Below, one piece after another: positions 25,292-54,712 of a stretch of DNA of 64,000 bases. The translations under genes were made by a program, and so were the position numbers. The stretch's first letter is position 1; each line of letters opens with the position of its first letter. The stretch lies in the NCBI GenBank assembly GCA_963744145.1, contig CAVUSO010000001.1, positions 5,056,001-5,120,000 of the forward strand, read 5' to 3'. The DNA is from an uncultured cyanobacterium (GTDB lineage Bacteria > Cyanobacteriota > Cyanobacteriia > Cyanobacteriales > CAWUOF01). The notes beneath the pieces were generated by a model, which saw only the letters and a program-made list of their open reading frames with translations, did no database searches and had not been told where the DNA came from.

Positions 25292-26671
25292 CTATTTAGG
25301 GCAGAAAAGTCGATCGCGTAAACCGCAAAAATAACAATCAGGAGTAGCTAAGTAATTAGGATTAGTTTTATGCCACTTAGATTCAGGAAACTCATAAATC
25401 CAATCCAGACCAGAATCAACATTCAAAAAACCGCTGACTATACCCTGAATAATCCCAACTCCTGTACTAGCACAAATGCTATTTAACCAAAATACCGCCG
25501 GATCATTAATTCCTTCTAGATAACCCGCTTGTGCTGCTAAGTTTTCAATTTCAACCGGAGCTGATTCTAAAGCAGCTCTTTGCAGACTAATGATATTACC
25601 ACACATCAGACACCACCCACCACCTAGAGGTGGAACAGTAATCCGACAATACATCCGGGGAACACTATTGGTTTTCACATCAATATGAGTGCCAAGACAA
25701 ACTAGAGGACGGATATATTTTAAAGCTAATTCTTGGGCAATTTGTCGAGAACGGTGATTGTCGGTAGCAACAACAATTAAATCAGTGGTTGCAATTTCTT
25801 GTTGCACAGGTTTATTTTCAACAGAGGTAGGTATCGCTTTGATAGAAGAACCTCTCCGATAAATATTCTTAATCAATTGTTTGACATATTCAACTTTATA
25901 CCAGTGATGGTCTACCATTTCCCATGTTGCTCCGGGCATCCGATTCAAGTTAACATTTTCTAAGCGATCGGGATCAATCAAGACCCAGTTTTTGACACCC
26001 AAACGTCCTAATTGTTCAGCAAAAACTGCTCCTATTCCACCACAACCAATTAAGGTAACGGTGAGTTGGCTGAGTTGTTGTTGAAAAGTTTCTCCAAATA
26101 CTTTTTGACGGCTAAATATTGGTTCATTTGCGTTAGTAGGATGACTAAATGTTGGCAATTCAAACCATGAAGAGTAAAATTTAACTTCCTCAAAAGCATT
26201 TCCTTGGCGATTCCAAAGTCGAAATTGAGATTGACGAAATGACTGATCAAAGACTCCAGAAATTAACTGGGGCTGTTGGGCGAATTTAGCAGAGAGAAAT
26301 CGGGCATATTCGGACTCATAAATATCATCAACTTGGGAAAAATAAGGAGTTTTTTGTTCAGCATGAGTATGAATATGAACGACATCGAACTCACCTTGAT
26401 GAAGATAGGTATTGAGGAGGTACTCGTGAAATTGTTGTTTGAGAATCAAGCCACTTGCTGATTGAGATTCGTAGCAATCAGGAGTAGGAACAACCCAAGC
26501 TTTTGGTGTATAGCGGACTTGATATTCGGAAATTTGATGGTGTTTACAAAAAAGAAAACCAATCACCTCTTCATTAGTTCTTCGAGCAGTTAACATGGCT
26601 TGACGGAATTGCTGCCACATTGTAGGTGGAATATGTAAAGAAATCTGGGAATAATGTTGTGAATTGTTCAT
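25292..26671 (-). CDS. JAB/JAMM peptidase fused to ThiF/E1-like activating enzyme
   Basis: N-terminal E..HIHTH..FSQVD (JAMM); C-terminal GCGGIG, DPDRLENVNLNR, ATDN, CLMC and CYFC zinc motifs. Confidence 0.88.
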   Translation of the reverse strand: MNNSQHYSQISLHIPPTMWQQFRQAMLTARRTNEEVIGFLFCKHHQISEYQVRYTPKAWVVPTPDCYESQSASGLILKQQFHEYLLNTYLHQGEFDVVHIHTHAEQKTPYFSQVDDIYESEYARFLSAKFAQQPQLISGVFDQSFRQSQFRLWNRQGNAFEEVKFYSSWFELPTFSHPTNANEPIFSRQKVFGETFQQQLSQLTVTLIGCGGIGAVFAEQLGRLGVKNWVLIDPDRLENVNLNRMPGATWEMVDHHWYKVEYVKQLIKNIYRRGSSIKAIPTSVENKPVQQEIATTDLIVVATDNHRSRQIAQELALKYIRPLVCLGTHIDVKTNSVPRMYCRITVPPLGGGWCLMCGNIISLQRAALESAPVEIENLAAQAGYLEGINDPAVFWLNSICASTGVGIIQGIVSGFLNVDSGLDWIYEFPESKWHKTNPNYLATPDCYFCGLRDRLFCPK

Positions 26672-26733
26672 GGTTTTGAGATGGGGTGAAATATCTGGTT
26701 AACAAATGCGATCGCCGGGGAAAATAACTGATC

Positions 26734-27219
26734 TCAATCTTCGCTATTAATAGCGTGCCGAGCTGTTATAAATAAAGTGGCGAGATTATGTCCATGTTCA
26801 GGGTAATTGTTAGGTCGCCAAGAATTAAGCCATCGATCTTGATTAAATCCACCACCTAGTCCTACACAGTACCAGTACCAACCTTCTGTACTTAAAAAAG
26901 GTGCGCCATAATAACTCTGTCTGGTAAAGTGATGATCTCCTTGTCCGACGGTATTCCAAGGGTAGTTTAGATAACAACCTATCGGGGGAAGACTGGGATA
27001 ATCTGGTGGTAATAAGAACAGTAAGTCAGAGTTAGAAACTGCAAATTTTTGAGAAGATAGTGGCATTCCTTTAATCAGAATGGCTGTATATTGAATACCA
27101 CTAATTGTTTTGCTGCCAACAATTATATTATTAGCGACTTTTTCCAACACTTTGAGTTCCGCCATAATTCTTGCTGTTGGCTGAAATTTTGATTGACCAT
27201 AATTGACAGCGATCGCCAT
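26734..27219 (-). CDS. Prokaryotic E2/UBC-like conjugating enzyme
   Basis: LLFLLPPDYPSLPP, WYWYC, WRP..NLATL; lies between the Ubl and E1 genes. Confidence 0.78.
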   Translation of the reverse strand: MAIAVNYGQSKFQPTARIMAELKVLEKVANNIIVGSKTISGIQYTAILIKGMPLSSQKFAVSNSDLLFLLPPDYPSLPPIGCYLNYPWNTVGQGDHHFTRQSYYGAPFLSTEGWYWYCVGLGGGFNQDRWLNSWRPNNYPEHGHNLATLFITARHAINSED

Positions 27220-27255
27220 GAAACTATCTCCTTTGACAATAGAATTAGAAAATAA

Positions 27256-27453
27256 TTATCCTTTCACAATTTTCGGAACAGTCCAAACTTTGCAACCTTC
27301 TTTAAGTGCATCGGTTTCTTTTAAGGGTTTGGTTCCTCCAAATCCTTCTTCCATGACATCATCATTACCAATTTCAGGTAATCTAGCTCTCAATTCTTCA
27401 ACAGTTGCACCAGTTGGTAAGTCTACTAATTTACCATTGACGATAGCTCTCAT
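27256..27453 (-). CDS. Ubiquitin-like beta-grasp protein ending in Gly (65 aa)
   Basis: MRAIVNGKLVDLPTGATVEELR...PKIVKG*; GAGAGGA RBS. Confidence 0.8.
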   Translation of the reverse strand: MRAIVNGKLVDLPTGATVEELRARLPEIGNDDVMEEGFGGTKPLKETDALKEGCKVWTVPKIVKG

Positions 27454-27483
27454 TGTTTTTCCTCTCACGATCAGGGGGGTCAA

Positions 27484-27879
27484 TTAATTGAAAATAACTG
27501 ATTTTTTGATCAAAGCGATCGCCGCAGTCTTCAGTTGGGATTTATGGACGGATGTTTGACAAGTTAAAGCCATCCAAACAGATAAAATTGTTATAGTCGC
27601 AGTTAGGATGATCATGACTAACAGCAATTGATGGTAAAGCTGTTCTAGTTTTTGAACTGACGCTTTTAACCTTTTGAGCTGGTTCATGTATTCTTTCCGA
27701 TCTTTTTGTTCAGCTGCTACTACATTGAGTTCCAATAATTCTAGGTGTTGGCTCAGTTCTCCCAGTTGGGAGTTAACTAATTCAAACTCCTTTGACTGTT
27801 GCACAATCAATTTGCCATTGATCGTTTGAATTAAATCAGCGGAAGTAATTTCAGTTAAGGCAGACATTTTTTCACTCAT
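27484..27879 (-). CDS. Coiled-coil protein with C-terminal TM helix
   Basis: AGGAGG RBS before MSEKMS; heptad region followed by LLLVMIILTATITILSVWMAL. Confidence 0.7.
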   Translation of the reverse strand: MSEKMSALTEITSADLIQTINGKLIVQQSKEFELVNSQLGELSQHLELLELNVVAAEQKDRKEYMNQLKRLKASVQKLEQLYHQLLLVMIILTATITILSVWMALTCQTSVHKSQLKTAAIALIKKSVIFN

Positions 27880-27907
27880 TCCTCCTTGTCTGTCGGTCAA
27901 GATTAAA

Positions 27908-28480
27908 TTAGTCGAAAATATTGGTATTACCAATGGGATAATAATTTTGGTTGTTATTCTGTTGCTCAAAATTATTAAAGATTTCAATCAAATCAACAAC
28001 GCTATTAGCTGCTAGTTTTAGATCACTACCAAGAGATTGTTCTACTGAAGCAACTTCAACACGCATTCCCCGTCTTCTAAGTTTTTCGGCTAAATAGGCA
28101 AAATCTGAATCTCCTGTGACTAAGACAACGATATCAGGACGGACTTCTAAAGCTAGTTCAATCGCATCCATTGCCATGACAATATCAATATTGGTTTCGT
28201 ACTCATCACCTTTTGCTTTACCTTCTTTGGCAACAACTAAAAAGCCTTTACTCTTAGCCCAATAGATAAATTTTTCTTTGGTTTTCCGCTGTTCTTCAAA
28301 TCGTTCTCGCGCTGGAGGTAAACCGACATAAATTACCATTTCAATCAGTTCTCTGCCCTCTTTTGGATCAGCTAGATAGTCACGGAGTTTTTGCCACTCT
28401 GCTTTTCTGTTAAATTTTTGTGCGGCGAGAAACGTATTGTCGCTATCTGCAAGAATCAGGACTCGACGAGGTGTTGCCAT
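27908..28480 (-). CDS. NYN/LabA (PIN-like) domain RNase
   Basis: ADSDN, NIDIVMAMD, VTGDSDF, LKLAANSVVDL. Confidence 0.88.
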   Translation of the reverse strand: MATPRRVLILADSDNTFLAAQKFNRKAEWQKLRDYLADPKEGRELIEMVIYVGLPPARERFEEQRKTKEKFIYWAKSKGFLVVAKEGKAKGDEYETNIDIVMAMDAIELALEVRPDIVVLVTGDSDFAYLAEKLRRRGMRVEVASVEQSLGSDLKLAANSVVDLIEIFNNFEQQNNNQNYYPIGNTNIFD

Positions 28481-31737: not shown

Positions 31738-31969
31738 ACTACCGAGTAGGATGAGAAGTGTTTGACTCGGTGAGAAACTGGTAGTAAAAAGCCGATTATG
31801 AAAGCTGAATGGGAATTTCCGATTGAAATAGTCATAGATTTTCTCCTATAAGTATTTTGACTTATGTAAAACTACTTTTACATTTACTATGATAATTAGT
31901 AAATATAAATCAATAACTTTTACAAACTGCCGAACGCCATCTAGCGCCTTCGGTAAGAGAGAATCAGCT

Positions 31970-33082
31970 ATGAAAGAGATCATTGCTCTTCACCTAACCC
32001 ACTACCGCAAAGGTCTAAACCTCTCTCAAGAGGAACTTGCATCCCTAGCGGGGGTAACTCGCCAGAGCATCCACAACTACGAGAATGGCAAAACCATACC
32101 CGATAGCAAAACCCTTTCGGCTCTTGCCCGTGCTTTGGGTGTTAAGCTAGATGATCTGCTACGGAAAGAAAGCACCTTGGCGTTACCAAACTTCCGGTTT
32201 CGCGCCCATACCACCTTCGACAAAAACCCCCAATTTGCAGCCCAAGTGCTGCGATTGTTAGAAGACTACATCGCACTAGAACAGGCAGTCGGCATTCCCA
32301 CATACACCCCAGAAAGCACCCCTTGTCACCAACTAGAAGGTAACGAAAAGCGAATTGCCGAAATTGCCACCCAGTTTCGCCACCGTTTGGGATTGGGAGA
32401 TGGCCCCATTCTGAATTTGTTTGAAGCTGTGGAAGAGACTGGTTTAAAAGCACTACGCCAGGATCTCCCAATTTCAGGGTTTTTTGGGCTGAGTGCCTGT
32501 AGTCTGGCTCAGGGAGCTTTCGTTTTAGTCAACAGCCATAACATCACCATCGAACGGCAGTTATTTACCCTGGCTCATGAAATTGGACACTTAATATTCC
32601 ATCGAGACGAGTATCAAGACAACTTGATAAAAGAAGGAACCAAAGAAGAAGAAAAAGCACGGGAAGCCGTTGCTAACCACTTTGCCAGTCATTTGCTAGT
32701 GTCTCAAGAGGCTCTAGAGCGAGCCTTAAATGTGTTCAGTAACGTAATTGAATTAAAAGCTCACTTCCGCGTCAGCTACACCATAATATTGATGCGACTA
32801 GAGCAAATGGGAAAGTTAAAGTATAGCGATGCCATTCAGAAAATACGTGGAGAATACAAGCGACAAACTGGAGAATCCCTTCCTAAAGAAAAAGAGATTG
32901 AGCCAACCTTAAGTTCTGAAGATTTTCCAGCCAACCAACGCTTTACTAAATTAGTTTGGCAAGCGCTTTGGGAGGGAAAAGTTTCAGAATTAAAAGCCGC
33001 AGAGTTACTTAATTTATCTGTTGATTCCTTGCGGCAGTCTCGTAAAGAAGCCAGGGTGTATGCTATCGATGCCATCTTCTGA
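31970..33082 (+). CDS. XRE HTH fused to ImmA/IrrE zinc metallopeptidase
   Basis: LSQEELASLAGVTRQSIHNYENG; FTLAHEIGH; EAVANHFAS. Confidence 0.9.
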   Translation: MKEIIALHLTHYRKGLNLSQEELASLAGVTRQSIHNYENGKTIPDSKTLSALARALGVKLDDLLRKESTLALPNFRFRAHTTFDKNPQFAAQVLRLLEDYIALEQAVGIPTYTPESTPCHQLEGNEKRIAEIATQFRHRLGLGDGPILNLFEAVEETGLKALRQDLPISGFFGLSACSLAQGAFVLVNSHNITIERQLFTLAHEIGHLIFHRDEYQDNLIKEGTKEEEKAREAVANHFASHLLVSQEALERALNVFSNVIELKAHFRVSYTIILMRLEQMGKLKYSDAIQKIRGEYKRQTGESLPKEKEIEPTLSSEDFPANQRFTKLVWQALWEGKVSELKAAELLNLSVDSLRQSRKEARVYAIDAIF

Positions 33083-33575
33083 AGGGCTGATTCTGGATGC
33101 TACAGCCCTGATTGACTTTTGCTGGTTGAATGAATGGGAATGGCTACAACAGCAGTACAGCCCTCTGTATATTGCCCAGGAAGTTTTGGACTCGGATCGG
33201 CTAGAAGTAGCAACAAAGGAAGCTGCTATGCACTACCTGGAACCCATTGCCCTCAATACTGAAGAGATGTTTTTGAGTTTCATGGAGTTTCGGATTAAAG
33301 CACCGCTACTCAGTGAAGCCGATCGCTCTACTTTAGCTTTAGCTCGTCACCGCTTCTTATTGTGCGTCAGTGATGACAGACGGATGATTGAGGTTTGTGA
33401 AGAGTACGGCATAGCTTATATTCGGATGCTGCGATTATTGAGCCAAATGGTACAGACCGGACATAGGACAGTTGAAGAGGTCATAGAGATGGCCGATACC
33501 TTAGTCAACGAGCGAGGGAAATGGATTGCACAAACAATTTTGTCAAGCTGGAAGCGCTCATTACTTAACTTCTAA
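33069..33575 (+). CDS. PIN-domain protein (DUF3368-like)
   Basis: LILDATALID, LSEAD, VSDD; overlaps the XRE-IrrE gene. Confidence 0.75.
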   Translation: MPSSEGLILDATALIDFCWLNEWEWLQQQYSPLYIAQEVLDSDRLEVATKEAAMHYLEPIALNTEEMFLSFMEFRIKAPLLSEADRSTLALARHRFLLCVSDDRRMIEVCEEYGIAYIRMLRLLSQMVQTGHRTVEEVIEMADTLVNERGKWIAQTILSSWKRSLLNF

Positions 33576-35610: not shown

Positions 35611-36606
35611 ATGTCAAAAAAATTTCCCACCAATAGCGATCGAGATGTTTTATCAACATCCCTGGTTGAAGAGTTTCTGAGTTTAGCCAATTTTCAGCGA
35701 GCCTGGGAAAAGGTAGCTTTCAATAAAGGTAGTGCTGGGATTGATGAAGAAACGATCGATAAATTTAAGCAGAATTTAAAAGCAAATCTTTCTCAATTGA
35801 GAGAATCTGTTGCTAATAGTACCTATCAAGCACTTCCCTGTAAACAAGTTTTAATCCCTAAAAATCAAGACAGTTGGCGAGAATTAAGAATTCCGGCTGT
35901 TAGAGATAGAATTGTTCAGCAAGCTTTATTAAATGTTCTTGCTCCAGTCTGGGAAAATAAGTTTTCTAAGTCTAGTTTTGCTTATCGTCCAGATTTATCT
36001 TACTTAGATGCTGTTGAAGAAGTCGCTCGCTGTCGAGATTTAGGTTATGTATGGGTACTGGATGCAGACATCACTCAATATTTTAATAATATTGACCACC
36101 AAAGGTTATTGAGAGAAGTTAGAAAGCACATCGATAATCCAGGGATTCTCTGTCTGATTAAATCTTGGATTTCTACTGAAATCGCCACAGAACAGGGAGT
36201 GATTAGAAATGAAAAAGGAATTCCTCAAGGTGCTGTGATTTCGCCTTTATTAGCTAATATTTACTTGGATGAGTTTGACCATTTTTTCTCTGATTCTGAG
36301 TTGCAGTTAATCCGTTATGCTGATGATTTTTTGGTATTAGCTTACTCCCGAGAGCAAATTGTTCAAGCTTATTCAGAAGTAAACCGATTACTCAAATCAA
36401 TGGGATTAGAGCTACATTCTGAGAAAACTCAGATTACCAGTTTTGAGCGGGGATTTCGATTTTTAGGTCATGGTTTTTTAGAAAATGCTATTTTTCCTTT
36501 GGAGTCTGCTAAAACTCAGCAGAAGTTAGTATCAGGAGAAAGTAATGGTAAAAAAAAAGTCTCCTGCTCGAAACAGAAAAGGAAACGGAAGCGGCATCTG
36601 CGTTAA
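35611..36606 (+). CDS. CRISPR-associated group II intron-like reverse transcriptase
   Basis: IPAVRDRIVQ, SFAYRP, GIPQGAVISPLLANIYL, RYADD, FLG; immediately upstream of cas1. Confidence 0.93.
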   Translation: MSKKFPTNSDRDVLSTSLVEEFLSLANFQRAWEKVAFNKGSAGIDEETIDKFKQNLKANLSQLRESVANSTYQALPCKQVLIPKNQDSWRELRIPAVRDRIVQQALLNVLAPVWENKFSKSSFAYRPDLSYLDAVEEVARCRDLGYVWVLDADITQYFNNIDHQRLLREVRKHIDNPGILCLIKSWISTEIATEQGVIRNEKGIPQGAVISPLLANIYLDEFDHFFSDSELQLIRYADDFLVLAYSREQIVQAYSEVNRLLKSMGLELHSEKTQITSFERGFRFLGHGFLENAIFPLESAKTQQKLVSGESNGKKKVSCSKQKRKRKRHLR

Positions 36607-37697
36607 GTCTTTCTCCGGTAGCTTCTACCCCTTTAGAGGTGGTTAAATCTGAGGGTTTTGAGGATGCTTCTAAAAATATTTGGAACAAGAACATGGCTAC
36701 TATTTATTTAATTGAACAAGGAACGGCGGTTTATAAAGAAAATTTGCGGTTTGTGATTTGGGTTTCTGATGAAGAAAGAAAAGAAATTCCCATTCGAGAA
36801 GTGGAAAGAATTCTGGTGTTTGGTAATATCCAAGTTTCAACTCAAGCGATAAATGCTTGTCTGGAAGAGAAAATCATCATTCTATTTTTAAACCGGTCCG
36901 GGCACTATAAAGGTCATCTTTGGAATTGGGAACATACCCATTTAGCTAATGAATTATTGCAAATTCAAAAATGGCAAAATATGCCGTTTCAATTACAAGT
37001 TTCTCAAGCAATTGTTCGCGGAAAGTTACTGAACTCGAAGCAATTATTGTTAAGGTTAAACCGGAAACGGAAAGTAGCAGAAGTTGCCCGGGCGATCGCG
37101 GGTATTAGTTCTGATATTAACACTCTGACGACAGTTGATAATCTTGATAGTTTACGGGGTTATGAAGGTATTGGTGCCGCCCGATATTTTCCAGCATTTG
37201 GTAAATTAATTACTAATTCTGGGTTTAAATTTTCTCTACGAAACCGTCAACCTCCCACCGATCCTGTTAATTCTTTATTAAGTTTTGGCTACACCCTTTT
37301 ATTTAATAATGTTTTGAGTTTAATCGTAGCTGAGGGTCTGTCTCCTTATTTTGGTAATTTCCACTATGGAGAAGATAAAAAACCCTATCTGGCTTTTGAC
37401 CTGATGGAAGAGTTTCGATCGCCGATTGTTGATGGTCTGGTGATCAAATTAATCAATAGCTCGGTTTTCAAGCCTACTGACTTTGAATTTGTTGCTAGCA
37501 CACAAGGAGTTTATTTAAGACATTCTGCTAGACGAGGGTTTCTCGAACAGTTTGAAAAACGTATGAATGAAGAAGTTTCTCATCCTGATTTACAATCGCA
37601 AGTTTCTTATCGAGAGGCTATTCAATTGCAGGTTCGACGCTACAAACGTAGTCTGTTACATGGGCTTGACTATGAACCTTTTTTGAGAACGATATAA
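36552..37697 (+). CDS. cas1: Cas1 (stand-alone start probably ATG 36693; the frame is open back to 36552 and may fuse to RT)
   Basis: LRGYEG..YF, DPVNSLLSFGY, H..LAFDLMEEFR..D. Confidence 0.95.
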   Translation, partial: KKSLLLETEKETEAASALSLSPVASTPLEVVKSEGFEDASKNIWNKNMATIYLIEQGTAVYKENLRFVIWVSDEERKEIPIREVERILVFGNIQVSTQAINACLEEKIIILFLNRSGHYKGHLWNWEHTHLANELLQIQKWQNMPFQLQVSQAIVRGKLLNSKQLLLRLNRKRKVAEVARAIAGISSDINTLTTVDNLDSLRGYEGIGAARYFPAFGKLITNSGFKFSLRNRQPPTDPVNSLLSFGYTLLFNNVLSLIVAEGLSPYFGNFHYGEDKKPYLAFDLMEEFRSPIVDGLVIKLINSSVFKPTDFEFVASTQGVYLRHSARRGFLEQFEKRMNEEVSHPDLQSQVSYREAIQLQVRRYKRSLLHGLDYEPFLRTI

Positions 37698-37713
37698 AGC
37701 TGCGGTTTAACTC

Positions 37714-37986
37714 ATGGTGGTTGTAGTGTACGACATTCCCGATGATAAAAGACGCACCAAGTTGTCTAATTTTCTAGAGGGCTATGGGACAAGAGTTCAG
37801 TGGTCTGTGTTTGAGTGTTTTATCACCTTAGACGAGATGCGAGTGTTACATGAGAAGGTGAAAAAACTTGTCAAGTCAGCGGAAGATGATGTTCGTTTCT
37901 ACTGGCTCTCTCCTGAAGCTGGGTCAATGGTTTTAACTATTGGTAGCGAAAAGCCTCAACCTCCCCCAAAGTATTATGTAATCTAG
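37714..37986 (+). CDS. cas2: Cas2
   Basis: VVYDIPDDKRR..GYGTRVQWSVFEC. Confidence 0.95.
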   Translation: MVVVVYDIPDDKRRTKLSNFLEGYGTRVQWSVFECFITLDEMRVLHEKVKKLVKSAEDDVRFYWLSPEAGSMVLTIGSEKPQPPPKYYVI

Positions 37987-38921: not shown

Positions 38922-41900
38922 CCCTACCGATGGGCTTAAATCGGACTAGTTGGAAACCATTCGGACTTCCCAGGACCTAGGTGCCTTGCAATCCATCCCT
39001 ACCGATGGGCTTAAATCGGACTAGTTGGAAACCCTGTGTCGTGACAATCCATACAGTGACCATTCTCCGTGCCCTACCGATGGGCTTAAATCGGACTAGT
39101 TGGAAACGAGAAATTGCTGCACAAATAATTCCCTAGGGAACCCTACCGATGGGCTTAAATCGGACTAGTTGGAAACTTTCCTAAGAAACGTCCGTCGATG
39201 TCAGTTTTTGACTTTCCCTACCGATGGGCTTAAATCGGACTAGTTGGAAACGACCAAATTGGATAAACCTCTCCAATTTGGTAGTACCCTACCGATGGGC
39301 TTAAATCGGACTAGTTGGAAACGCGCATTAAACACTGCCTTTTGGCAGTTTCCGTTTATGGTGCCCTACCGATGGGCTTAAATCGGACTAGTTGGAAACA
39401 ATGTCATATCGTTCCTGGATGGGCATGGGATTTTTGAGCTGCCCTACCGATGGGCTTAAATCGGACTAGTTGGAAACGTTGCCTTTTGGCAGTTCGAATT
39501 GACGGTGACGCCACCGGCCCTACCGATGGGCTTAAATCGGACTAGTTGGAAACAAAGCGACGCCAACACCAACACAAGAAGCAACATTTTTGACCCTACC
39601 GATGGGCTTAAATCGGACTAGTTGGAAACACAACGACAGGATGTCGCCCGGAAGGGCAGCTAACTTGCCCCTACCGATGGGCTTAAATCGGACTAGTTGG
39701 AAACCTGGCGTCAACGCTGTGCGCGCCTTGTTGTTGGTCGCCCTACCGATGGGCTTAAATCGGACTAGTTGGAAACCTAACTCGTCATACAGACCAGCAG
39801 CCCGGAAGGTTGCTAGCCCTACCGATGGGCTTAAATCGGACTAGTTGGAAACGGAATTATTCCGCTTGTCGTAGTTAAAAATTACACCACCCTACCGATG
39901 GGCTTAAATCGGACTAGTTGGAAACGCCCAGAACCAAAGAAAACATTAACAAAGCGGAAACCCTACCGATGGGCTTAAATCGGACTAGTTGGAAACCCGT
40001 GAACATCGGGGCAGACGTAGGTGTCCCCCCCTTTACCCTACCGATGGGCTTAAATCGGACTAGTTGGAAACACAAGCGGGGCGCCCCTGTGAGTCCTTAG
40101 GGCACTCTTCCCCTACCGATGGGCTTAAATCGGACTAGTTGGAAACTTTTTTGATTGAGCGGATAACACCCTGGCGGGTGCTTCCCTACCGATGGGCTTA
40201 AATCGGACTAGTTGGAAACTTTTTTGGGCAGGACCGGTTTACCGTCTGGCCCCAACCCACCCTACCGATGGGCTTAAATCGGACTAGTTGGAAACCGACC
40301 TCCCTTTCGGTCAACCACCACGGGGCCCTACCGATGGGCTTAAATCGGACTAGTTGGAAACTGCTGGTCTTGGGAACAACCGTAGACGGTGTTCCCCCTA
40401 CCGATGGGCTTAAATCGGACTAGTTGGAAACCTGTAGTCTTGAACATAAGCTGGGTGTTGTGCGACCCTACCGATGGGCTTAAATCGGACTAGTTGGAAA
40501 CTTGCAATCGTCGAGGACCTGCTGCTGTCTGACCCTACCGATGGGCTTAAATCGGACTAGTTGGAAACCCCCAAAACCTCGATAGAGGAGGTAAGGTAGG
40601 GTAGTTTTAACCCCCTACCGATGGGCTTAAATCGGACTAGTTGGAAACCGACCGTCACGCTCCTCAATGATTATGGAGCCCTCCCTACCGATGGGCTTAA
40701 ATCGGACTAGTTGGAAACCAGTCGAGGCTGTGGGGTGCGTTCTTTGCAGCCGTCGAGGCCCTACCGATGGGCTTAAATCGGACTAGTTGGAAACGTCCAA
40801 GTGCCCCCGAGGATATCGCATTGTGCTTTAGTTGCCCTACCGATGGGCTTAAATCGGACTAGTTGGAAACCTTTCGCTTAAGTTGGTGTAGGTAGGGGAA
40901 AACCCTACCGATGGGCTTAAATCGGACTAGTTGGAAACTATATACGATGAGGTGAGGACCATCTCCGCTATTGACCCTACCGATGGGCTTAAATCGGACT
41001 AGTTGGAAACTTTCCGTCAGACGAGCATTCCGTTTCCGCTACCTTCCCTACCGATGGGCTTAAATCGGACTAGTTGGAAACCTGTCGGCAGCGTTGAAAT
41101 TGAAGTATCCAACACACCCCTACCGATGGGCTTAAATCGGACTAGTTGGAAACGTATTGTTGCTAAGGAGCAACTTATAACGTACCCCGCCCTACCGATG
41201 GGCTTAAATCGGACTAGTTGGAAACTCTTCTGGTCAACCACAACAGGGTGTTGCCCTGTTGGACAACCCTACCGATGGGCTTAAATCGGACTAGTTGGAA
41301 ACTATATTAGCTACAAAAAGACTTGCAGCCGAAAAAGCAGAACCCTACCGATGGGCTTAAATCGGACTAGTTGGAAACGACATCGTGTGCGCCCGACTGT
41401 TGGTCGGGGTTACACCCCTACCGATGGGCTTAAATCGGACTAGTTGGAAACACCGTTATGGTGGTGTGGATGTGCTGGTCTGGCAACTGGCCCTACCGAT
41501 GGGCTTAAATCGGACTAGTTGGAAACTGGCAGGTTGGCCCGCCATCGATGCTGTGTACCGCCCTACCGATGGGCTTAAATCGGACTAGTTGGAAACGACA
41601 TCGAACCTTATGATGCCCAGCGGGGCGATGGCAGCCCTACCGATGGGCTTAAATCGGACTAGTTGGAAACTTACAGGCTAGATCAAGTGTCGCGGGTGCT
41701 TAGGACCCTACCGATGGGCTTAAATCGGACTAGTTGGAAACTTTTTAGCAGACATATTTTTTCGTCCTTAGATAAAAGCCCTACCGATGGGCTTAAATCG
41801 GACTAGTTGGAAACGCTCGGTGCACCATGCTTCTGTCACATCTTGGGCCGTGCCCTACCGATGGGCTTAAATCGGACTAGTTGGAAACTTTTACGTATCT

Positions 41901-43362
41901 CTCACTCATCATTGAGTGATATACGCCCTACCGATGGGCTTAAATCGGACTAGTTGGAAACGACTGACTGTTGGAAGTCAGGTACTGTCCCGCCCCTACC
42001 GATGGGCTTAAATCGGACTAGTTGGAAACTTTTTACAGGTTCCCAAGGCTTCCCCGTTGGAGTCCTTCCCTACCGATGGGCTTAAATCGGACTAGTTGGA
42101 AACAGTACAGAAGCAACAGCAACACCGATACCAACAATAACACCACCCTACCGATGGGCTTAAATCGGACTAGTTGGAAACTTTATCGAGACGCCACCGG
42201 TGGCGTCTATATCGTGCGACCCCTACCGATGGGCTTAAATCGGACTAGTTGGAAACTTTATCGGGGGTGGGATGGCAAACGATCACTTTGCCCCTACCGA
42301 TGGGCTTAAATCGGACTAGTTGGAAACGCGAGGTTGCAGTCAGTATCGTACCACTGCACTCCACCCCTACCGATGGGCTTAAATCGGACTAGTTGGAAAC
42401 GTCTGACAGCTCTTGCCGTCAGCGGAACACTCGGTTTCCGCCCTACCGATGGGCTTAAATCGGACTAGTTGGAAACTTTTCTCCTATCCCCGTTAGCCTA
42501 GATCATTAGCTTTACTTCCCTACCGATGGGCTTAAATCGGACTAGTTGGAAACTCTGTCTTTCCGTTAGCGGTCCAGGTACCGCCTACCCTACCGATGGG
42601 CTTAAATCGGACTAGTTGGAAACAGGTTATTGTTGCTACGAAGTTTAAGGAATTGAAAGATCCCTACCGATGGGCTTAAATCGGACTAGTTGGAAACCAA
42701 ACAAAGTCGCAGAAGAATCGAATACAAAGCCCTACCGATGGGCTTAAATCGGACTAGTTGGAAACCCTTGACTACAGCGGCAGCAGCAGCAACACCAAGC
42801 AAAGCCCTACCGATGGGCTTAAATCGGACTAGTTGGAAACGCAATAGCAGCAAGGGCTAGAAGGGCTAGTAGAGCAACACCCTACCGATGGGCTTAAATC
42901 GGACTAGTTGGAAACTTGAAAGCGCCGCTTCAGCTCTGGTGAGCTGTTTGGCCCTACCGATGGGCTTAAATCGGACTAGTTGGAAACGCTGTAAAAGGAC
43001 TCCACGGCCAGCGTTGTTATCCCTACCGATGGGCTTAAATCGGACTAGTTGGAAACCTACGGCAACAGCAACAACAAACAATTTGATAGAAGACCCCTAC
43101 CGATGGGCTTAAATCGGACTAGTTGGAAACTAGAGCATCCCGCTCTTCAATTAGGAGCGTTCCTTTCTTCCCCACGCCCTACCGATGGGCTTAAATCGGA
43201 CTAGTTGGAAACAAGGGACGGTTGGACCAAATGCTGGGAAATCTACCAACCCTACCGATGGGCTTAAATCGGACTAGTTGGAAACGTGTACAGTTCAGCC
43301 TTAATCGCTGCTATTGCAGCTTTAGGCCCTACCGATGGGCTTAAATCGGACTAGTTGGAAAC
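38922..43362 (+). CRISPR. CRISPR array of ~61 copies of the 36-bp repeat CCCTACCGATGGGCTTAAATCGGACTAGTTGGAAAC, ~60 spacers of ~30-46 bp
   Basis: Manual count; the 3' GAAAC end and the upstream leader indicate + orientation. Confidence 0.98.
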
Positions 43363-48499: not shown

Positions 48500-50272
48500 G
48501 TGAGTCAAATATATACTGCGATCACCTTTGCCCCAGTGCAAAGTTTTATTGAAAAATCCCGTAAATTGCGAGATTTATATGGGAGTTCATTTATCTTATC
48601 CTACTTAGCCGTGGAAATTTGTAGAGCAGCTAGGCGCGATCGCAATGTTCCAGAAGATAATCCCCCTCCGGAAATTGACCCGATCATCTCACCAGCACTC
48701 ATCAACGTCACTCAAGGGACGCCTAATCAAATAATTATTCGAGGAGATTACAAAAAAGATAACGCTGAAACCGCCTTTGCTGAAGCTTGGGATGCAGTGA
48801 TAGAAGGTTGTCGTCAGTGGATCGAAGACAATGTTAAAACTTGTGGGCAGTATTACTGGAGGAGGAACTGGGATGGGTGGAAACATCATGCTTGGGAGTT
48901 TTTTTGGGGACAAGGACAAAATATCGGTGAAGCAAGGAATGCGGTTAATGAAGCCAAGCGATCGCGCAATTGGATAGCAATAAACTGGGTAGGAGAAAGT
49001 TCGACTTTATCTGGTGCCGATGGGGTCGCGTGGCCAGGTTTAGGCAAGAATAATCCGAAGTATTCTAATTACCAGCAGCAAAAATTGGAGATTGAAGGTT
49101 TTTATCAGCGACTAAGTTTGAAACTGGGAGAAGCTTTTGCAGAAGCCGCAAATCTCAATGTAGATGAAGAAAAGAAAAAAGAATATGGTGCGGCGTTTGT
49201 TGACCCTGATGAAGAATTAAGCATACCTGAATTAGTGAAGCGGTTAATTACGCATCTAGCGATCGCTGAGAGAATTGTCGCGCGATTGAAACAACCAATT
49301 ACTAAAAGAGAACTTAAAGAAAGGTTGAAGCAACTGAGTGAAGAACTAAATCCCGATAGTTTTAGAGATTTAAGTCGCTTAAAACACAAAAATAAAAAAG
49401 CCCAGACATCAGTCCCAGAATATTATACTGGTTGGTTTCAGGGAGACGGCGATCGCATGGGCGATTTAATGAAAAGACTCTCTAACGAGGACAATCCTGA
49501 AATTGAAGCCCAAGAACTTCATAAATTTAGTCGGGCGATGATGAAATGGGGAGAAAAAAACTTCAAGCCCAACCTGAATGCTTCTAACGGTCGTACAGTT
49601 TATGCTGGTGGTGATGACTTTCTTGGGATTTTTTACCCCTTACCAAAAAATCCGTCACAAAAGCAGCAATTTATCCCTCTGACCGGACAAGATTGCATCA
49701 ATTGGTTTTATGAATTTCCCGCTCTTTGGAAACAGCACAAACAACCCGTAAGTGTTAGTGTTGGATTTGTCTGGGCAGCACCCAATGTACCACAAAGAGA
49801 CGTTTTACAGCACTGCCATTCAGCTGAATCTTCAGCAAAAAAGAGTGGCAAAGACCGTATTGCATTGCGGGTGCTATTTAACGGTGGTACTCATATAGAA
49901 TGGGTATGTCCTTGGTGGTTTTTAGAAGTATTAAAACACTATCAAGATAGAGATGGCAACACTTTAAAATCTTTGTCAAAAGGGAATAAAACTAAACCAA
50001 ACTGGACTCACCTTTATAACGATGTTGCTACTTTAGAATCGCGCCACGCATTTTACGGTAATACTAAAATTGCCCAAGCACTCTTTCAAATTTATTTTCC
50101 TGAGTGCAAGGATTTTATTCACCATGATTATTGGTGGGTACATTGCTATAGAGATGAATTGAGAACGGGCATTTTAGGACATGAACAAAAAAATGCCAAA
50201 AAAGATGTTACTGAACTGTTTAACGAATGGGTTATTAACTTAGCAAAAGTAGGATTTCACTTATGCACATAA
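48500..50272 (+). CDS. cas10: Cas10/Cmr2 lacking an HD domain, cyclase palm intact
   Basis: PVQSFIEKSRKLRDLYGSS, GDGDRMG, YAGGDD. Confidence 0.95.
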   Translation: MSQIYTAITFAPVQSFIEKSRKLRDLYGSSFILSYLAVEICRAARRDRNVPEDNPPPEIDPIISPALINVTQGTPNQIIIRGDYKKDNAETAFAEAWDAVIEGCRQWIEDNVKTCGQYYWRRNWDGWKHHAWEFFWGQGQNIGEARNAVNEAKRSRNWIAINWVGESSTLSGADGVAWPGLGKNNPKYSNYQQQKLEIEGFYQRLSLKLGEAFAEAANLNVDEEKKKEYGAAFVDPDEELSIPELVKRLITHLAIAERIVARLKQPITKRELKERLKQLSEELNPDSFRDLSRLKHKNKKAQTSVPEYYTGWFQGDGDRMGDLMKRLSNEDNPEIEAQELHKFSRAMMKWGEKNFKPNLNASNGRTVYAGGDDFLGIFYPLPKNPSQKQQFIPLTGQDCINWFYEFPALWKQHKQPVSVSVGFVWAAPNVPQRDVLQHCHSAESSAKKSGKDRIALRVLFNGGTHIEWVCPWWFLEVLKHYQDRDGNTLKSLSKGNKTKPNWTHLYNDVATLESRHAFYGNTKIAQALFQIYFPECKDFIHHDYWWVHCYRDELRTGILGHEQKNAKKDVTELFNEWVINLAKVGFHLCT

Positions 50273-51546
50273 CATCAACATCTATCGCAGAGGAAAAAAA
50301 ATCAGAAAATCCGCCATTTTCCCACATAATTGTGATTAAACCGTTAGGATTTCTCTATGGCAGTGCTGGAAAGTTTTTATCACCAGAAAACTTAGTCGGA
50401 CGTTCTGGAACTAGCTTTCCTCCTAGTGCTGCCACTTTATCAGGTATTTTTGCGGCTTCCTTACCGCCCGATAAAATCAAAAATTTGCAGTTGGCTGGGC
50501 CTTTTTGGGCATGGAGTCACAATCCGCAAAATTTTTATGTTCCTACTCCTTTTAATTGCTTAGTCAAGGATAAAAAAATTCATCAGCAAATCGCGTGGTT
50601 CCAACAATGTAAAGATCCATGTAAAGGACGATGGTTAGCACAATTTAGGGTGTGGCAAAAGATCAATGGAGAGTTAGTAGGGTTAGATTTATATAAAACA
50701 CCACCTAATGATAAGTTTGAAAGCAAAACTTGGTTACCAATCAGACATTGGAAACGAATAAGACATAAAATAAATAAAGATAAAAACTTATTCAAGGAAA
50801 CCATACCCCAAGAAGAAAATTGCTTTCCTCAACTTAAAGTTGAATCACCCCCTTGGGAATTTGTCCCTCACCTGCACCCGCGACTACAAGAGGATCAAAG
50901 ACGAGTTATAAAGCCTGAAGAAGAACGAGAAAGGGGCAGTTTATTTTTAGAAAACGGAGTGCAATTAAATCCCGATGCGTGCTTAGTTTATTTGTCAAAT
51001 ATTTCTATTCCCGATGGTTGGTATCGGTTTGGTGGTGAAGGTCATTTAGTAGATTTGCGTTGTGAGAATATATGCCAAACTGTTACTGATTTACTCAAAG
51101 AAAAGTTAGGGCACAGTTTTGCATTAATCACTCCAGCAGTATGGGGTTCTAATCGGCTGTCTTACCGCGAACCAATGGTACAGGAAAATCAGGATAAAAA
51201 TGGTGAGTGGGTTCCTGCTTGGAAACGGGAAGCTTTACTGACAGAACGTAGTATCCCTTTCCGTTATCGCTTAGGAAATCCTCAACAATCGGCAGAAGGT
51301 GAGAAACGAAAAAGTAATGAAAAATTGCTGTCTCGCGGACGGTATGCGATGCCAGCAGGCAGTGTTTATGTGTTAGAAAAACCTCTCCCATCTTGGCAAG
51401 AATGGGATAAAGATTGGTTTCCCAAAGAAGGTGTTTCATTTAAACGTTGGGGTTGTGGGCTATCGTTACCTTTGGAAAGCGCACTTGTTCAAGAGTCAGA
51501 TCCACAAACAGCTAATACTTCTGAAATTTCCCTAGGAGATAATTAA
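50263..51546 (+). CDS. cmr3: Cmr3 (Cas5 group)
   Basis: PLGFLYGS, FPPSAAT, FGGEG, PAGSVY, WGCG. Confidence 0.88.
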   Translation: MHITSTSIAEEKKSENPPFSHIIVIKPLGFLYGSAGKFLSPENLVGRSGTSFPPSAATLSGIFAASLPPDKIKNLQLAGPFWAWSHNPQNFYVPTPFNCLVKDKKIHQQIAWFQQCKDPCKGRWLAQFRVWQKINGELVGLDLYKTPPNDKFESKTWLPIRHWKRIRHKINKDKNLFKETIPQEENCFPQLKVESPPWEFVPHLHPRLQEDQRRVIKPEEERERGSLFLENGVQLNPDACLVYLSNISIPDGWYRFGGEGHLVDLRCENICQTVTDLLKEKLGHSFALITPAVWGSNRLSYREPMVQENQDKNGEWVPAWKREALLTERSIPFRYRLGNPQQSAEGEKRKSNEKLLSRGRYAMPAGSVYVLEKPLPSWQEWDKDWFPKEGVSFKRWGCGLSLPLESALVQESDPQTANTSEISLGDN

Positions 51547-52431
51547 ATGTATCACAAAGCTTATGGAATTATTGAAACCTTAGCCCCTTTACATATTGGA
51601 GCGACAGCAGGAGAAGAAACAGGAAATTTAAACTTGATTTTCCGCGATCAGTTTACCAAAACTGGGATTATTCCCGGTAGTTCAATTCGAGGAAGATTTC
51701 GCGCTGATATGCGATCACAAAATGGGAAAGTTTCTGAATGGTACGGTCACGAAGCGGTTGCAGGACAACAAGATGGCGGCACTACGGAAGCATCAGTTAA
51801 ATTTGAATATGCGTCTTTAGTATGGTTACCTGTTTTTTGTCCAGGTCAACCGATCGTTTGGGTAAGTTGTCCTTCACTGCTAAAACGTTACCAGCAAATC
51901 ACTCAAATTGATCGCAAGATCGATATTCCCAAACCTTACACGGCTGATCATGGATTAGAAGCGCGGTTAGTACCAGGAACAACTGAAAAAGTTTTATTCT
52001 TTAACTTGGGTTTTTTAGGGATTGAACATCAGGAAAATTTAGCCGTTTGGATTCCGATCGGTGCTGACTTACCTAAAAAACAATTAGTTGTTGTTGATGA
52101 TAACGATATCTCTATGCTGCATGATATGGCTTTGTATCGTCAAAGTCGTATTAAGATGCTGGATAATATGAAGAAAGTAGATACAAGAACGGGTGCTTTT
52201 TTTAATGTAGAAGCCTTGCCCGTTGGTAGTATTTTAGTGTTTCCAATAGCATCAAAACAATTCGGCTGGCAACCCTTTGGCAACCTGCAAAAAGATAAAA
52301 ATTATTCTCAAGAACTGTATTTTGGGGGATTAGAATCAATTGGATTTGGTCGGTGTAATGTAACCCTGGTAGGAGAAGCACTTGATCAGCCAGAAAATAT
52401 TCAAGCAACTACACAGGAGGTTAATAGCTAA
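51547..52431 (+). CDS. cmr4: Cmr4 (Cas7 RAMP)
   Basis: PLHIGA, IPGSSIRG, FGGLESIGFG. Confidence 0.92.
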   Translation: MYHKAYGIIETLAPLHIGATAGEETGNLNLIFRDQFTKTGIIPGSSIRGRFRADMRSQNGKVSEWYGHEAVAGQQDGGTTEASVKFEYASLVWLPVFCPGQPIVWVSCPSLLKRYQQITQIDRKIDIPKPYTADHGLEARLVPGTTEKVLFFNLGFLGIEHQENLAVWIPIGADLPKKQLVVVDDNDISMLHDMALYRQSRIKMLDNMKKVDTRTGAFFNVEALPVGSILVFPIASKQFGWQPFGNLQKDKNYSQELYFGGLESIGFGRCNVTLVGEALDQPENIQATTQEVNS

Positions 52432-52955
52432 TGGCTTGGAAATATTACAATTTCGAGGAAAATGGTCAGCAGTTACACAGTTTAGATCAAGTAGCGCAAA
52501 ATCTGGTTTTGGCGGCTAAGGAACGATTGGTGAAGGATGACAGGGGACGGATTGTTTTAGATGACAATGGACAAGGTAAACATTCGCTCAATCAATCCTT
52601 TAAAATGCGGGAAGCAGTTGCTTACGGGTTAGAGCGTTTTTGGGGAGAGCATTTGCGTTTTCAAGGTAAATCGAAGTTTAATTGCGATGAATTTGATAAT
52701 AAATCTAAGTATTGGAAGGATACTTGGGATGCTTTAGTGATAATTATGCGGCAAGGTGGTGTCATTATTCCCAATGATTCAGTTCATATTGACAGACCGA
52801 ATTCTGTGAAGTCAATGGCACAGAAATTATGGGCTTTGGATATTAAAGACCAGCGAATTATCTTGGCTGTTTTGACACAGTTATGCGATTCCATTGTCTG
52901 GTGGACACAGCGGTATAAAGGACCTGGGGATTTAACAATTGATGAAGATAATTAG
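52431..52955 (+). CDS. cmr5: Cmr5-like small subunit (Cas11)
   Basis: Helical, AYGLERFWGE; position between cmr4 and the large RAMP gene. Confidence 0.7.
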   Translation: MAWKYYNFEENGQQLHSLDQVAQNLVLAAKERLVKDDRGRIVLDDNGQGKHSLNQSFKMREAVAYGLERFWGEHLRFQGKSKFNCDEFDNKSKYWKDTWDALVIIMRQGGVIIPNDSVHIDRPNSVKSMAQKLWALDIKDQRIILAVLTQLCDSIVWWTQRYKGPGDLTIDEDN

Positions 52956-52966
52956 GAGATTAAATC

Positions 52967-54712
52967 ATGGTAAATATTCCCAATGCAGCTAATCTAATTC
53001 CCTTAATGTTTCAGGCACAAGCGAAAGGGCGATCGCAACTTCAGTACATTGATAGTACCAAAGAAGCCGAGGAACAAGATTCTTACAAATGGGCTGCTCA
53101 GTGGACTGATAAAGCTTATCCCAATCCGCCAGAATTTGGTGATAAGACATCTACAAAAATCTATCAAATCCAGTGGCGTTTTGTTACTAATGGCGGACAA
53201 TATGAAGGAATTATTTTTCCTGCCCTTGGTGCTTTTGGGTTACCTTTTTATCCAGGTAGCAGTATGAAAGGCGCATTTTGTCAAGCTTGCACTGATGACC
53301 AGAAAAAACGCTACCGTTTGACTAAAAATGGTGATGAACCAAGTTTATTACGCTTTCACGGTGGTTATCCGGTGAATGATTGGAAGGAGAATTTAGTAGA
53401 TATTGTTCATCCACAACAAGGATGGCAGATCAAAACATCTAATACCGCTCAAAAACCAGGAGGTGAAACAGGTTTTGCCCTAATTTCTTTATGGCAACCT
53501 ATTATTAAATTTGGAATTTCTAGTTTATTACCAGAAACTAATTGGGATGAAGTTTGGGCAATTTGGGAAAAAGCTTTAGGTTATGGAATTGGCTGTCGTA
53601 CCAGTAGTGGGTATGGGTTGCCAAAAGAGCGTTTAAATGAGAAAGGAGAAGTGGATTGTCCGATCCAAGTTCAGGGGGAAGTTCTCTATAAAGCTCATTT
53701 AAAAGGACAGGGACAAGCGCCAACTTTGATCGATAAAACTCCGGAATTTCGCCCAAATATTTTTAGGGGAAGTTTGCGGAGTCATGCTTTGCGGATTTTT
53801 GGAGGATTAACGAATTCAAAAACCGCAGAAAAGTTAGTAGAAAATTTATTTGGTGGAGTGAATGATGGTGGAACTCAGGGATTATTAACTTGCGTGTTTC
53901 AATCCTCATCTTTAAAACTAGGTGAGTTTACTGATGGATATAACGAGCCAACTTACAAAGTAGCTGGAGAATTACGTTGGTTATTGATGTCACCCCGTCA
54001 ATTGGATGAAAACAAAAAGGAGGTACTGAAAAGGTTATTAAGGGCTTTAATGCAGTTTGCAATGTTATTTGGTGGTTTTGGTAAGTCGTGGCGACGGGTC
54101 GATCATCGCCTATTTCCCTATGAATATAAAAATCATAGAGGTCAATTTGAAAACTACTACGATCGTCATCAACCACTGATTGGCTGTCACTGGGAGTGGA
54201 ATAGAAATTCCCTAATAAATGCGACTAATATTCCCTCTTTGAATCGCGTTGCGTCGTTTATTAATAAACTGAGAGAAATTGCTGGTGAATGGATGCACCT
54301 AAATAACTTAGAACCGAATGAAAATCAATATTCTCCTTGGCGAGAATCTTGGCATCCTGAGACTGTGCAAGTATGGGGACGATTGGCTGATGGAGCTGAT
54401 CATTGTGTTGCTATTAAATGGCTTCATGAAGCTTATCAAAGAGCTGATCGTCGTACCGGAATACCTGAGTTAAGGATTAAAAAAACTTCTGTTACTGGTT
54501 GCATAAATAAAATTAGTAGGCTTTGGCTTCGGATGTATCCAGTAGTTCGGCTGGTAGACGATCTAAACAATCCAGGGAAGAAAATCCCAAAGCTGACTCC
54601 TAATTATCTGGAACTATTGACTATTTTTCCTGATGATTCAGATGATTTCAATAATTTTGTCAATTTTCTCGATTCAGAGCCAGAAGGGTTTCGACAGCTT
54701 TGGTCTCTTTGA
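52967..54712 (+). CDS. cmr6: Two-RAMP protein (Cmr6 with a Cmr1-like module), type III-B variant
   Basis: YPGSSMKG..GIGCRTSSGYG, then FRPNIFRGSLR..LFGG..GGFGKSWRR. Confidence 0.8.
   Translation: MVNIPNAANLIPLMFQAQAKGRSQLQYIDSTKEAEEQDSYKWAAQWTDKAYPNPPEFGDKTSTKIYQIQWRFVTNGGQYEGIIFPALGAFGLPFYPGSSMKGAFCQACTDDQKKRYRLTKNGDEPSLLRFHGGYPVNDWKENLVDIVHPQQGWQIKTSNTAQKPGGETGFALISLWQPIIKFGISSLLPETNWDEVWAIWEKALGYGIGCRTSSGYGLPKERLNEKGEVDCPIQVQGEVLYKAHLKGQGQAPTLIDKTPEFRPNIFRGSLRSHALRIFGGLTNSKTAEKLVENLFGGVNDGGTQGLLTCVFQSSSLKLGEFTDGYNEPTYKVAGELRWLLMSPRQLDENKKEVLKRLLRALMQFAMLFGGFGKSWRRVDHRLFPYEYKNHRGQFENYYDRHQPLIGCHWEWNRNSLINATNIPSLNRVASFINKLREIAGEWMHLNNLEPNENQYSPWRESWHPETVQVWGRLADGADHCVAIKWLHEAYQRADRRTGIPELRIKKTSVTGCINKISRLWLRMYPVVRLVDDLNNPGKKIPKLTPNYLELLTIFPDDSDDFNNFVNFLDSEPEGFRQLWSL

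Follow-up and report, generated by a model that had tools for sequence, protein, structure and literature searches.

Introduction

Bacteria possess several pathways that attach ubiquitin-like proteins (Ubl) to other proteins. In the type I Bub operons (6E.1; Iyer 2006 row 6e; Ye et al., PMC11601596) the Ubl is conjugated via a tyrosine of the E1 enzyme, as set out in the accessible text of the last of these, and the Bil operons (BilABCD) combine a Ubl, a Cys-type E2, a JAB peptidase and an E1 without an E3. A gene combination that joins a core of this kind to an NYN ribonuclease (RNase) and a membrane protein was catalogued by Altae-Tran 2023 (PMC10910872) as row 162 of Table S3, its domains being named in the legend of Fig. 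6D. In this paper we analyse such a five-gene module in a stretch of 64,000 nucleotides (nt), here called the window, from an uncultured cyanobacterium (assembly GCA_963744145.1, contig CAVUSO010000001.1, positions 5,056,001 to 5,120,000), where it lies beside genes of a type III CRISPR locus. Our preferred reading, to which we give a probability of roughly 40%, is that a Bub-derived Ubl conjugation switch controls the NYN RNase, and that the whole is an accessory defence module of type III loci with reverse transcriptase (RT) and Cas1 in cyanobacteria.

The module is real, conserved, CRISPR-linked and already catalogued. A first, sequence-only reading of this DNA had not recognised the combination as a described system, and that view has to be given up. 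Besides the entry in Table S3, the Altae-Tran seed contig JAAUYB010070855 (L126 in our set) holds homologues of all five genes in the same order behind RT-cas1-cas2, with identities of 77% for NYN, 85% for the Ubl, 67% for the E2 (3245-3730 of that contig) and 57% for JAB-E1, the membrane anchor also being present. PADLOC has a model of the membrane family, PDLC01177 'CorA-like', which fits it end to end (E down to 2e-54). Our module and the catalogue entry are the same system. That entry gives no function, and JAB, the kinship with Bub, the catalytic residues, the RT link and the NGK motif described below go unmentioned in the main text and Table S3; the supplement may say more. A literature search on the five-gene combination, with most subscription papers outside its reach, found no functional study, and a search for 'Prok-E2' with 'CRISPR' returned Altae-Tran 2023 only. 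The main text and Table 2 of Shah 2019 do not mention the module, the accessible text of a preprint on Ubl diversity has no match to CRISPR, NYN or cyanobacteria, and the accessible parts of PMC12409355, PMC8195603 and PMC11855584 hold nothing relevant. What appears to be new is a Bub-related core with a Tyr-type E1 and a Cys-type E2 without BubE, a single-pass 'CorA' with a Ubl-like NGK motif, the tie to RT-cas1, and the existence of a CRISPR-free core.

The five-gene module and its conservation

All five open reading frames (ORFs) lie on the minus strand in the order NYN, membrane coiled coil, Ubl, E2-like and JAB-E1, with intergenic gaps of 28, 30, 36 and 62 nt. The first encodes an NYN/LabA-family RNase (27908..28480; 190 amino acids, aa; PF01936, E 1e-23) whose C-terminal IG..xFD tail beyond the nuclease domain is conserved. 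It is followed by a membrane-anchored coiled-coil protein (27484..27879; 131 aa; ATG start behind GGAGG; one hydrophobic segment), a single-domain Ubl (27256..27453; 65 aa from the ATG) with the C-terminus PKIVKG (K64-G65), an E2-like, BubB-like protein of the UBC fold (26734..27219; 161 aa; predicted catalytic Cys118), and a fusion of a JAB/JAMM peptidase with a ThiF-type E1 (25292..26671; 459 aa; Pfam ThiF, E 4e-25; crossover-loop Tyr384). The ThiS-like Pfam match of the Ubl (E 0.003) is under the cut-off, its neighbours in the Atlas being labelled multi-ubiquitin/ThiS, and the Prok-E2_E Pfam match in the module is likewise sub-threshold. A scan for promoters and terminators gave nothing in excess of shuffles.

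An E2 search of a species-level genome collection yielded 60 loci from 120 candidate stretches. By their labels they are cyanobacterial apart from two metagenome-assembled genomes, one of them labelled Acetobacteraceae, and the order of the five genes is almost invariant over these 60 cyanobacterial-type loci. Where at least 1.7 kb of upstream DNA is present, NYN is found in 53 of 56 loci and the membrane gene in 54 of 56; JAB-E1 is found in 57 of the 58 loci with room downstream. A CRISPR marker (array, cas, RT, cmr, csx3 or CRISPR-type WYL) occurs in 56 of 60 loci and in 28/28 of those whose flanks are complete, with an array in 25, cas2 in 20 and cmr in 22 of them. Usually the genes are arranged on one strand as RT-cas1-cas2-array-module-(csx3)-cas10-cmr, and the repeat family of the window's array lies upstream of NYN in the same orientation in 35 of the 55 loci examined. 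Among 401 sampled genomes a close E2 homologue was found in 8, all of them among the 50 with a Cmr1-6 fusion (0/351 in the others); two further E2 matches were weak, and one of these was confirmed as a classical type I Bub operon. Close NYN homologues were present in 10 of the 401, namely the 8 that have the full module and 2 more in which remnants are left. The sampled genomes are related and not independent, so these co-occurrence counts are descriptive; the linkage of the module to CRISPR exceeds chance. The claims of the sequence-only reading can be judged from these data. The five-gene minus-strand operon, with a Ubl ending in KIVKG, is borne out by the ORFs, their order, the 28-62 nt gaps and the PKIVKG end; the NYN and membrane genes are indeed co-conserved with the Ubl core, and the CRISPR linkage is real.

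Across cyanobacteria the Ubl, E2 and NYN proteins are 70-95% identical. Several further genes recur near the module. A WYL regulator gene is present in 24 of 66 loci, and a membrane M48 peptidase, 76-87% conserved, lies beside JAB-E1 or RT in 16 of 66 (for example L039:8200-9231) and not in the window. In about 18 loci, including L060:7334-8302 on the minus strand, a second, divergently encoded NYN of about 320 aa stands just upstream of the module NYN and fits PADLOC PDLC01154 end to end. Unannotated genes recur downstream of JAB-E1 in the Nostoc loci L047, L049, L059, L060 and L076, in clusters of about 242, 144, 108, 180 and 235 aa; four proteins of this block were searched and had no Pfam match. 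Reduced copies are also seen: L080 (G344:C39) has NYN and the anchor only, in a genome which carries two tandem long cmr6 genes, and L082 (G312:C2) has a frameshifted NYN and an E1 remnant. No E2 relative was found in 12 candidate stretches of viral contigs.

A Bub-related conjugation core

The best PDB match of the JAB-E1 protein is Citrobacter BubCD (E 3e-14), in which Y384 is aligned to the GY containing the catalytic tyrosine, Y370. As in type I Bub, the JAB domain is fused N-terminally to the E1 with its E/HxH/D site kept, and, judged from the alignment, the Tyr of the E1 crossover loop is invariant and no Cys lies between C357 and C400. The residues E35, H101, H103, S112, D115, R244 and Y384 are found in 59/59 sequences. 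The E2 model (pLDDT, the predicted local distance difference test, 88.9) has Citrobacter BubB as its best structural match (Z 12.5, root-mean-square deviation 2.5 A, 122 aligned; next Z 8.8). It replaces an earlier model from close homologues only, which had a pLDDT below 50 at 89-125 and no Foldseek match at E 0.001. In the alignment with classical BubB (probability 98%), C118, G120 and I80 stand at the positions of the Ser (that of the W-S-R-H motif), His and Asp, so the catalytic Ser with its His and Asp partners is absent from the module E2. Four columns, C118 among them, are invariant over 55 E2 sequences reaching down to 20% identity, a set of 51 of 79 distant matches and 4 close ones from which short fragments were mostly omitted. 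In the Ubl, G7, K8, P60, K64 and G65 are invariant (36 sequences, down to 31% identity). Of 59 Ubl homologues, 32 stop at the Gly and 27 carry unconserved tails after it. Ubl and E2 are separate genes in the window, and fusions of the two were found in 4 of 120 listed close homologues and in many distant ones. The variable tails and the natural fusions would explain the need for a JAB peptidase.

BubE (DUF6527, PF20137) was sought with a model that, as a control, recognises the BubE of a classical type I Bub operon. None was found in the window's genome (G000) or in 3 other module genomes; in a fifth the sole match was short and lay on another contig. For comparison we used a classical type I Bub operon at L018:8302-11949 (G005), which has a probable CapH/CapP-like pair.

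Like type I Bub, the module has a JAB-E1 fusion, a crossover-loop Tyr and a BubB-like E2 fold, its Ubl ends in Gly, some relatives have Ubl-E2 fusions and WYL regulators are found nearby. Unlike type I Bub, it has Cys for the BubB Ser without the partner His and Asp, BubE was not found, Ubl and E2 are mostly separate, an NYN and a membrane anchor are added, and the whole is embedded in CRISPR loci. Membership of classical type I Bub was rejected on the E2 Ser triad, bubE and the Ubl-E2 fusion; the core would work like a type I Bub pathway yet departs from it in these three features. With Bil the module shares a Ubl, a Cys-type E2, a JAB and an E1 without an E3. In Bil, though, the JAB is separate and the E1 is of the IAD-AAD-CYS kind with a catalytic Cys, whereas here the JAB is fused to a homodimer-type Tyr E1 which, over its 459 aa, matches BubCD. 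No Bil-named model was among the best 25 PADLOC and best 25 NCBIfam matches. An identity with CBASS Cap2/Cap3 was rejected as well, the PADLOC E1-E2 models matching the E1 part only, and a PDB sequence search with E2, Ubl and anchor gave nothing significant.

The predicted catalytic residues of NYN, JAB, E1 and E2 are all invariant, and the conjugation enzymes are very probably active. Because the E1 Tyr is kept, a Cys stands at the E2 Ser position and BubE was not found, we suggest a relay from adenylate to tyrosyl ester to cysteine thioester to lysine. Aryl esters readily transfer to thiols.

The membrane protein and its NGK motif

The membrane protein is 105-170 aa long, consists of a coiled coil and one transmembrane segment (TM), and shows only about 25% identity between homologues. 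One TM was found in 62/62 homologues and a second in 0/62. The sole invariant columns are T19, N21, G22, K23 and L24, forming an N-terminal T-x-N-G-K-L at residues 19-24, in an alignment of 47 rows drawn from 57 sequences that fit the pattern. The NGK counts are less biased: it is present in 61 of 62 homologues and in 41 of 43 low-GC metagenome loci that were not motif-selected (several of them redundant). In the window's own genome, T[IVLF]NGKL occurs a single time in 5746 ORFs of at least 100 aa, and no other substrate with this motif was found among them. The motif matches the N-terminal hairpin of the Ubl at G7-K8, and in L133 the string TINGKLVDL is present in both proteins. From this likeness we read the membrane protein as a tethered Ubl mimic, whose lysine may act as an acceptor or whose motif may be where a reader of the Ubl, for instance NYN, docks. 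That the NGK lysine is the acceptor is a tentative proposal, to which we would give slightly less than even odds.

The protein had been called a membrane effector from the sequence alone. Its place in the membrane stands, but the case for an effector is weak, since one TM, about 25% identity and a lone invariant N-terminal motif fit an anchor or acceptor better than a pore. CorA and 2-TM-GxN channels have a large cytosolic domain, two TMs and a GMN motif. A CorA channel was rejected here: there is no second TM in the 62 homologues, 7 of which have GMN and 19 of which have G[MLFIV]N behind the TM, and there is no CorA match in Pfam or the PDB. A remote descent from the stalk and first TM of CorA is possible. 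A v-SNARE Pfam match at the cut-off was taken as generic coiled coil, and an Atlas search of the anchor gave sub-0.9 leads only.

The NYN RNase and a CRISPR-free core

In the NYN protein D12, N15, D99, D105, D124, D126, I183, G184 and F189 are found in 58/58 sequences, and by alignment the acidic active-site residues of an NYN RNase (D12, D99, D124 and D126) are kept. Six high-GC metagenome loci (two near-identical, 5 distinct) have NYN-Ubl-E2-JAB/E1 with 24-96 nt between NYN and Ubl; they show no anchor, no match to the cas queries used and no array. Two more short high-GC contigs give no upstream view. Neighbours were inspected in four of the high-GC loci, and among them are ATPases of the HerA-like and AAA kinds, another NYN and a type I restriction cluster. 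As NYN directly precedes the Ubl in these CRISPR-free loci, it belongs, on the evidence of gene order, to the ancestral core and would have a role independent of CRISPR; cyanobacteria then added the anchor and the CRISPR address. G344, which retains NYN and the membrane gene without Ubl, E2 or E1, points to an NYN-anchor pair. We consider it very likely from this conserved arrangement that NYN is functionally tied to the conjugation enzymes. The five proteins have no CARF or SAVED match in Pfam or PADLOC, although they may have a sensor site of an unrecognised kind, and the loci carry separate CARF effectors.

The NYN/CorA pair of the type III-B SAM-AMP system of Bacteroides fragilis resembles the module in that a type III-B locus has an NYN, with its catalytic aspartates, together with a gene that bears the label CorA. 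The 'CorA' here, however, is 105-170 aa long, single-pass and without a sensor domain, and no Ubl machinery is described there; the two NYN sequences were set side by side by description only.

Which part of the CRISPR locus the module follows

RT lies directly before cas1 in 22/22 informative GTDB loci and precedes it in 8/8 metagenome loci (three apparently being the same contigs). Among the 50 Cmr1-6 fusion genomes, RT is found in 7 of the 10 with the module NYN versus 4 of the 40 without, and the 3 exceptions have decayed loci. Over 17 loci, pairwise distances of NYN, E2 and E1 correlate with those of Cas1 at 0.47, 0.70 and 0.78. Against Cas10 the values are 0.28-0.55 (E2 0.40, E1 0.55) and against Cmr6 about 0 (E2 0.04, E1 -0.01). 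The module distances follow Cas1 and not Cmr4/6; these are raw correlations, without a host tree or significance test. The module and RT-cas1-cas2 are also found together beside other repeats and a different, 1000-aa Cas10, and in the closest relatives of the window (L020, L100, L124) the module stands directly before RT-cas1. Taken together, this argues against a specific contact with Cmr and for either a role in adaptation or co-inheritance. The CRISPR link of the sequence-only reading holds, with RT-Cas1-Cas2 and the array as closer partners of the module than the Cmr genes.

Two further observations concern these loci. In L113 (at 5666-6670) and its kin, where the Cas10 has 1000 aa and the repeat is another one, NYN is immediately preceded by a second, divergent cas1, which is 35-38% identical to that of the window. 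Across L020-L079, cmr4, cmr5 and cmr6 range from 28% to 78% identity, varying independently of cas1 and the module, which suggests that Cmr effector genes may often be swapped.

The CRISPR locus in the window

In the window's own genome the module had been described as back-to-back with a type III locus. The CRISPR link is confirmed, but 'back-to-back' is loose: next to the module, in divergent orientation, stand a PD-DExK gene, a fragment of cmr4 (88% identity over 173 nt to the intact cmr4) and csx1. The CRISPR-related genes span the next 26 kb beyond csx1, and include csx3-AAA and WYL genes. The adaptation module of RT, cas1 and cas2 (35611..37986, plus strand; RVT_1 and Cas1 Pfam matches) is followed by a plus-strand array of 61 repeats of 36 nt with 60 spacers (38922..43362), of which 1/60 has a partial self match (23/35 nt) to its own genome. 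Further along lie cas10, cmr3, cmr4, cmr5 and a long cmr6 of the Cmr1-6 fusion type (48500..54712, or 48.5-54.7 kb, plus strand; PADLOC Cas10b and Cmr6, E <1e-190), a type III-B variant. Between 28931 and 30079 are remnants of a duplicated cas10/cmr3 junction and of the start of cmr4, with the PD-DExK gene between them; they are 86-88% identical to 50233-50290 and 51544-51716. As these short repeats adjoin the operon, they suggest a decayed duplicate plus local rearrangement. In relatives the module is usually within the CRISPR locus on the same strand, and therefore the copy in the window looks rearranged.

Other features of the window and its genome were recorded. The array leader holds a 136-nt tandem duplication (77%) at 38478-38749. 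At 31889-33575 an HTH-M78 peptidase gene is followed by a PIN-like gene, with weak PADLOC matches to RmrA and PDC-S70; this is a probable toxin-antitoxin or regulator pair within the CRISPR locus. A second csx3-AAA/WYL pair, 92-96% identical and broken, is found at G000:C1:3333111-3334667, and two adenylate/guanylate cyclase-like genes, read off the sequence as having sensor domains, stand in tandem at 14945-18959.

Discussion

We infer the conjugation, its targets and its trigger from homology, alignment and gene order, and on that footing the switch might operate as follows. JAB would trim tails or Ubl-E2 fusions to expose G65, as suggested by BubCD chemistry and the variable tails. The E1, by homology, would adenylate the Ubl and hold it as a Tyr384 ester, from which Cys118 of the E2 would accept it as a thioester and not as a serine ester, as the alignment indicates. 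The E2 might then pass it to an NGK-hairpin lysine, so that a membrane-tethered Ubl chain would be primed at K23 of the membrane protein and extended at K8 of the Ubl, a step which the shared motif suggests. Such a scaffold could hold, release or concentrate NYN, and upon infection or stress NYN may cut RNA and slow the invader or the cell while the co-expressed CRISPR system acts.

Several observations weigh against this conjugation-controlled RNase. The anchor and Ubl profiles match over a short stretch of 21 columns (probability 19%, E 0.0013). The NG turn is generic in ThiS-like proteins and several distant Ubl-E2 fusions have Arg in place of the Lys; therefore NGK may be a docking hairpin and not an acceptor. 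The E1 has other invariant cysteines (C210, C354, C357 and C400), and C400, just past the crossover loop, could conceivably be catalytic. The CRISPR-associated NYN of B. fragilis is a constitutive RNase with no direct defence role (10.1101/2024.04.08.588522), and in the accessible text of PMC11601596 the Bub authors saw no Bub operon protecting E. coli against phage. Finally, a general RNase role leaves the near-perfect RT link unexplained.

That last point leads to the question whether the module serves adaptation, with a Ubl-controlled NYN cutting RNA down to short prespacers for RT-Cas1-Cas2, or the Ubl toggling RT or Cas1, so that risky RNA spacer uptake takes place only under infection. 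The RT before cas1 in all informative loci (22/22 and 8/8), its presence in 7/10 versus 4/40 Cmr1-6 genomes, the E2 and E1 distances that track Cas1 (0.70, 0.78) over Cas10 (0.40, 0.55) and not Cmr6, and a module which stays with RT-cas1-cas2 beside different repeats and Cas10 proteins, directly before RT-cas1 in L020, L100 and L124, all point this way. Shared ancestry of one locus and faster swapping of Cmr would, however, give the same pattern; 4 genomes have RT-Cas1 loci that are without the module, the core also occurs where there is no cas match, and just one of the 60 window spacers has even a partial self match. On balance we consider an adaptation role unlikely. A more elaborate form, in which the Tyr-to-Cys relay would build a Ubl chain on the Ubl-mimicking anchor and the chain would license NYN to feed RNA fragments to RT-Cas1-Cas2, we also regard as doubtful. 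It might be instead that NYN matures CRISPR RNA (crRNA) and the Ubl system restrains or localises it, as the B. fragilis NYN is proposed to trim crRNA (10.1101/2024.04.08.588522), the III-B variant is without an obvious Cas6 in the accessible text of PMC6546367, and in most loci (35/55) the array precedes the module on the same strand. Yet 40 of the 50 genomes of this Cmr type are without a close NYN homologue, processing in Synechocystis is by RNase E according to the same source, and the module pairs with several repeat types and exists without arrays, all of which makes crRNA maturation quite improbable.

A direct defence of the Bil kind would give the E2 the task of tagging phage proteins and spoiling virion assembly, with NYN and the anchor as helpers and the CRISPR address reflecting shared regulation. 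According to the accessible text of PMC11601596, Bil operons attach Ubl to structural proteins of phages with no E3 involved; a Cys E2 is common to both, WYL genes accompany 24/66 loci, and one high-GC copy adjoins a type I restriction-modification cluster. The E1 is nevertheless of the Bub and not the Bil type, the Ubl-like lysine motif of the anchor is left unexplained, and an identity of 70-95% for Ubl, E2 and NYN indicates low divergence for recognition of phage targets, so we doubt this explanation. Least probable, and in our view very unlikely, is a role outside defence, either in housekeeping or membrane protein quality control, with Ubl tagging for extraction or degradation, or in ThiS/ThiF sulfur transfer. 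The ATPases near high-GC copies (AAA directly upstream in two, HerA-like nearby in two), the M48 membrane protease in 16/66 loci and ThiF as the top family match, which is far below the cut-off, would suit it. Its patchy spread (8/401), frequent decay and strict CRISPR address in cyanobacteria do not, and sulfur transfer needs neither an E2 nor a JAB, with no sulfur-metabolism gene among the recurring annotated neighbours.

With a Bub-derived switch acting on NYN as the preferred reading, a catalogued but unstudied CRISPR accessory gains a testable mechanism. The chemistry of the Bub pathways is known and their biological role is not. In this branch the partner enzyme, NYN, and the genomic address are fixed and there is a candidate for the acceptor lysine, so that target and function can be asked about directly. 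If true, the pairing of a Tyr E1 and a Cys E2 would be intermediate between the all-oxyester Bub cascades and the all-thioester Bil and eukaryotic ones. The 'CorA' label is corrected, which otherwise is open to misreading as a SAM-AMP effector. The tie to RT-Cas1 bears on how cells restrict the uptake of RNA spacers and, if a Ubl chain on the anchor did license that uptake, this would to our knowledge be the first case in which spacer acquisition is controlled by protein conjugation, here with a hybrid ester chemistry.

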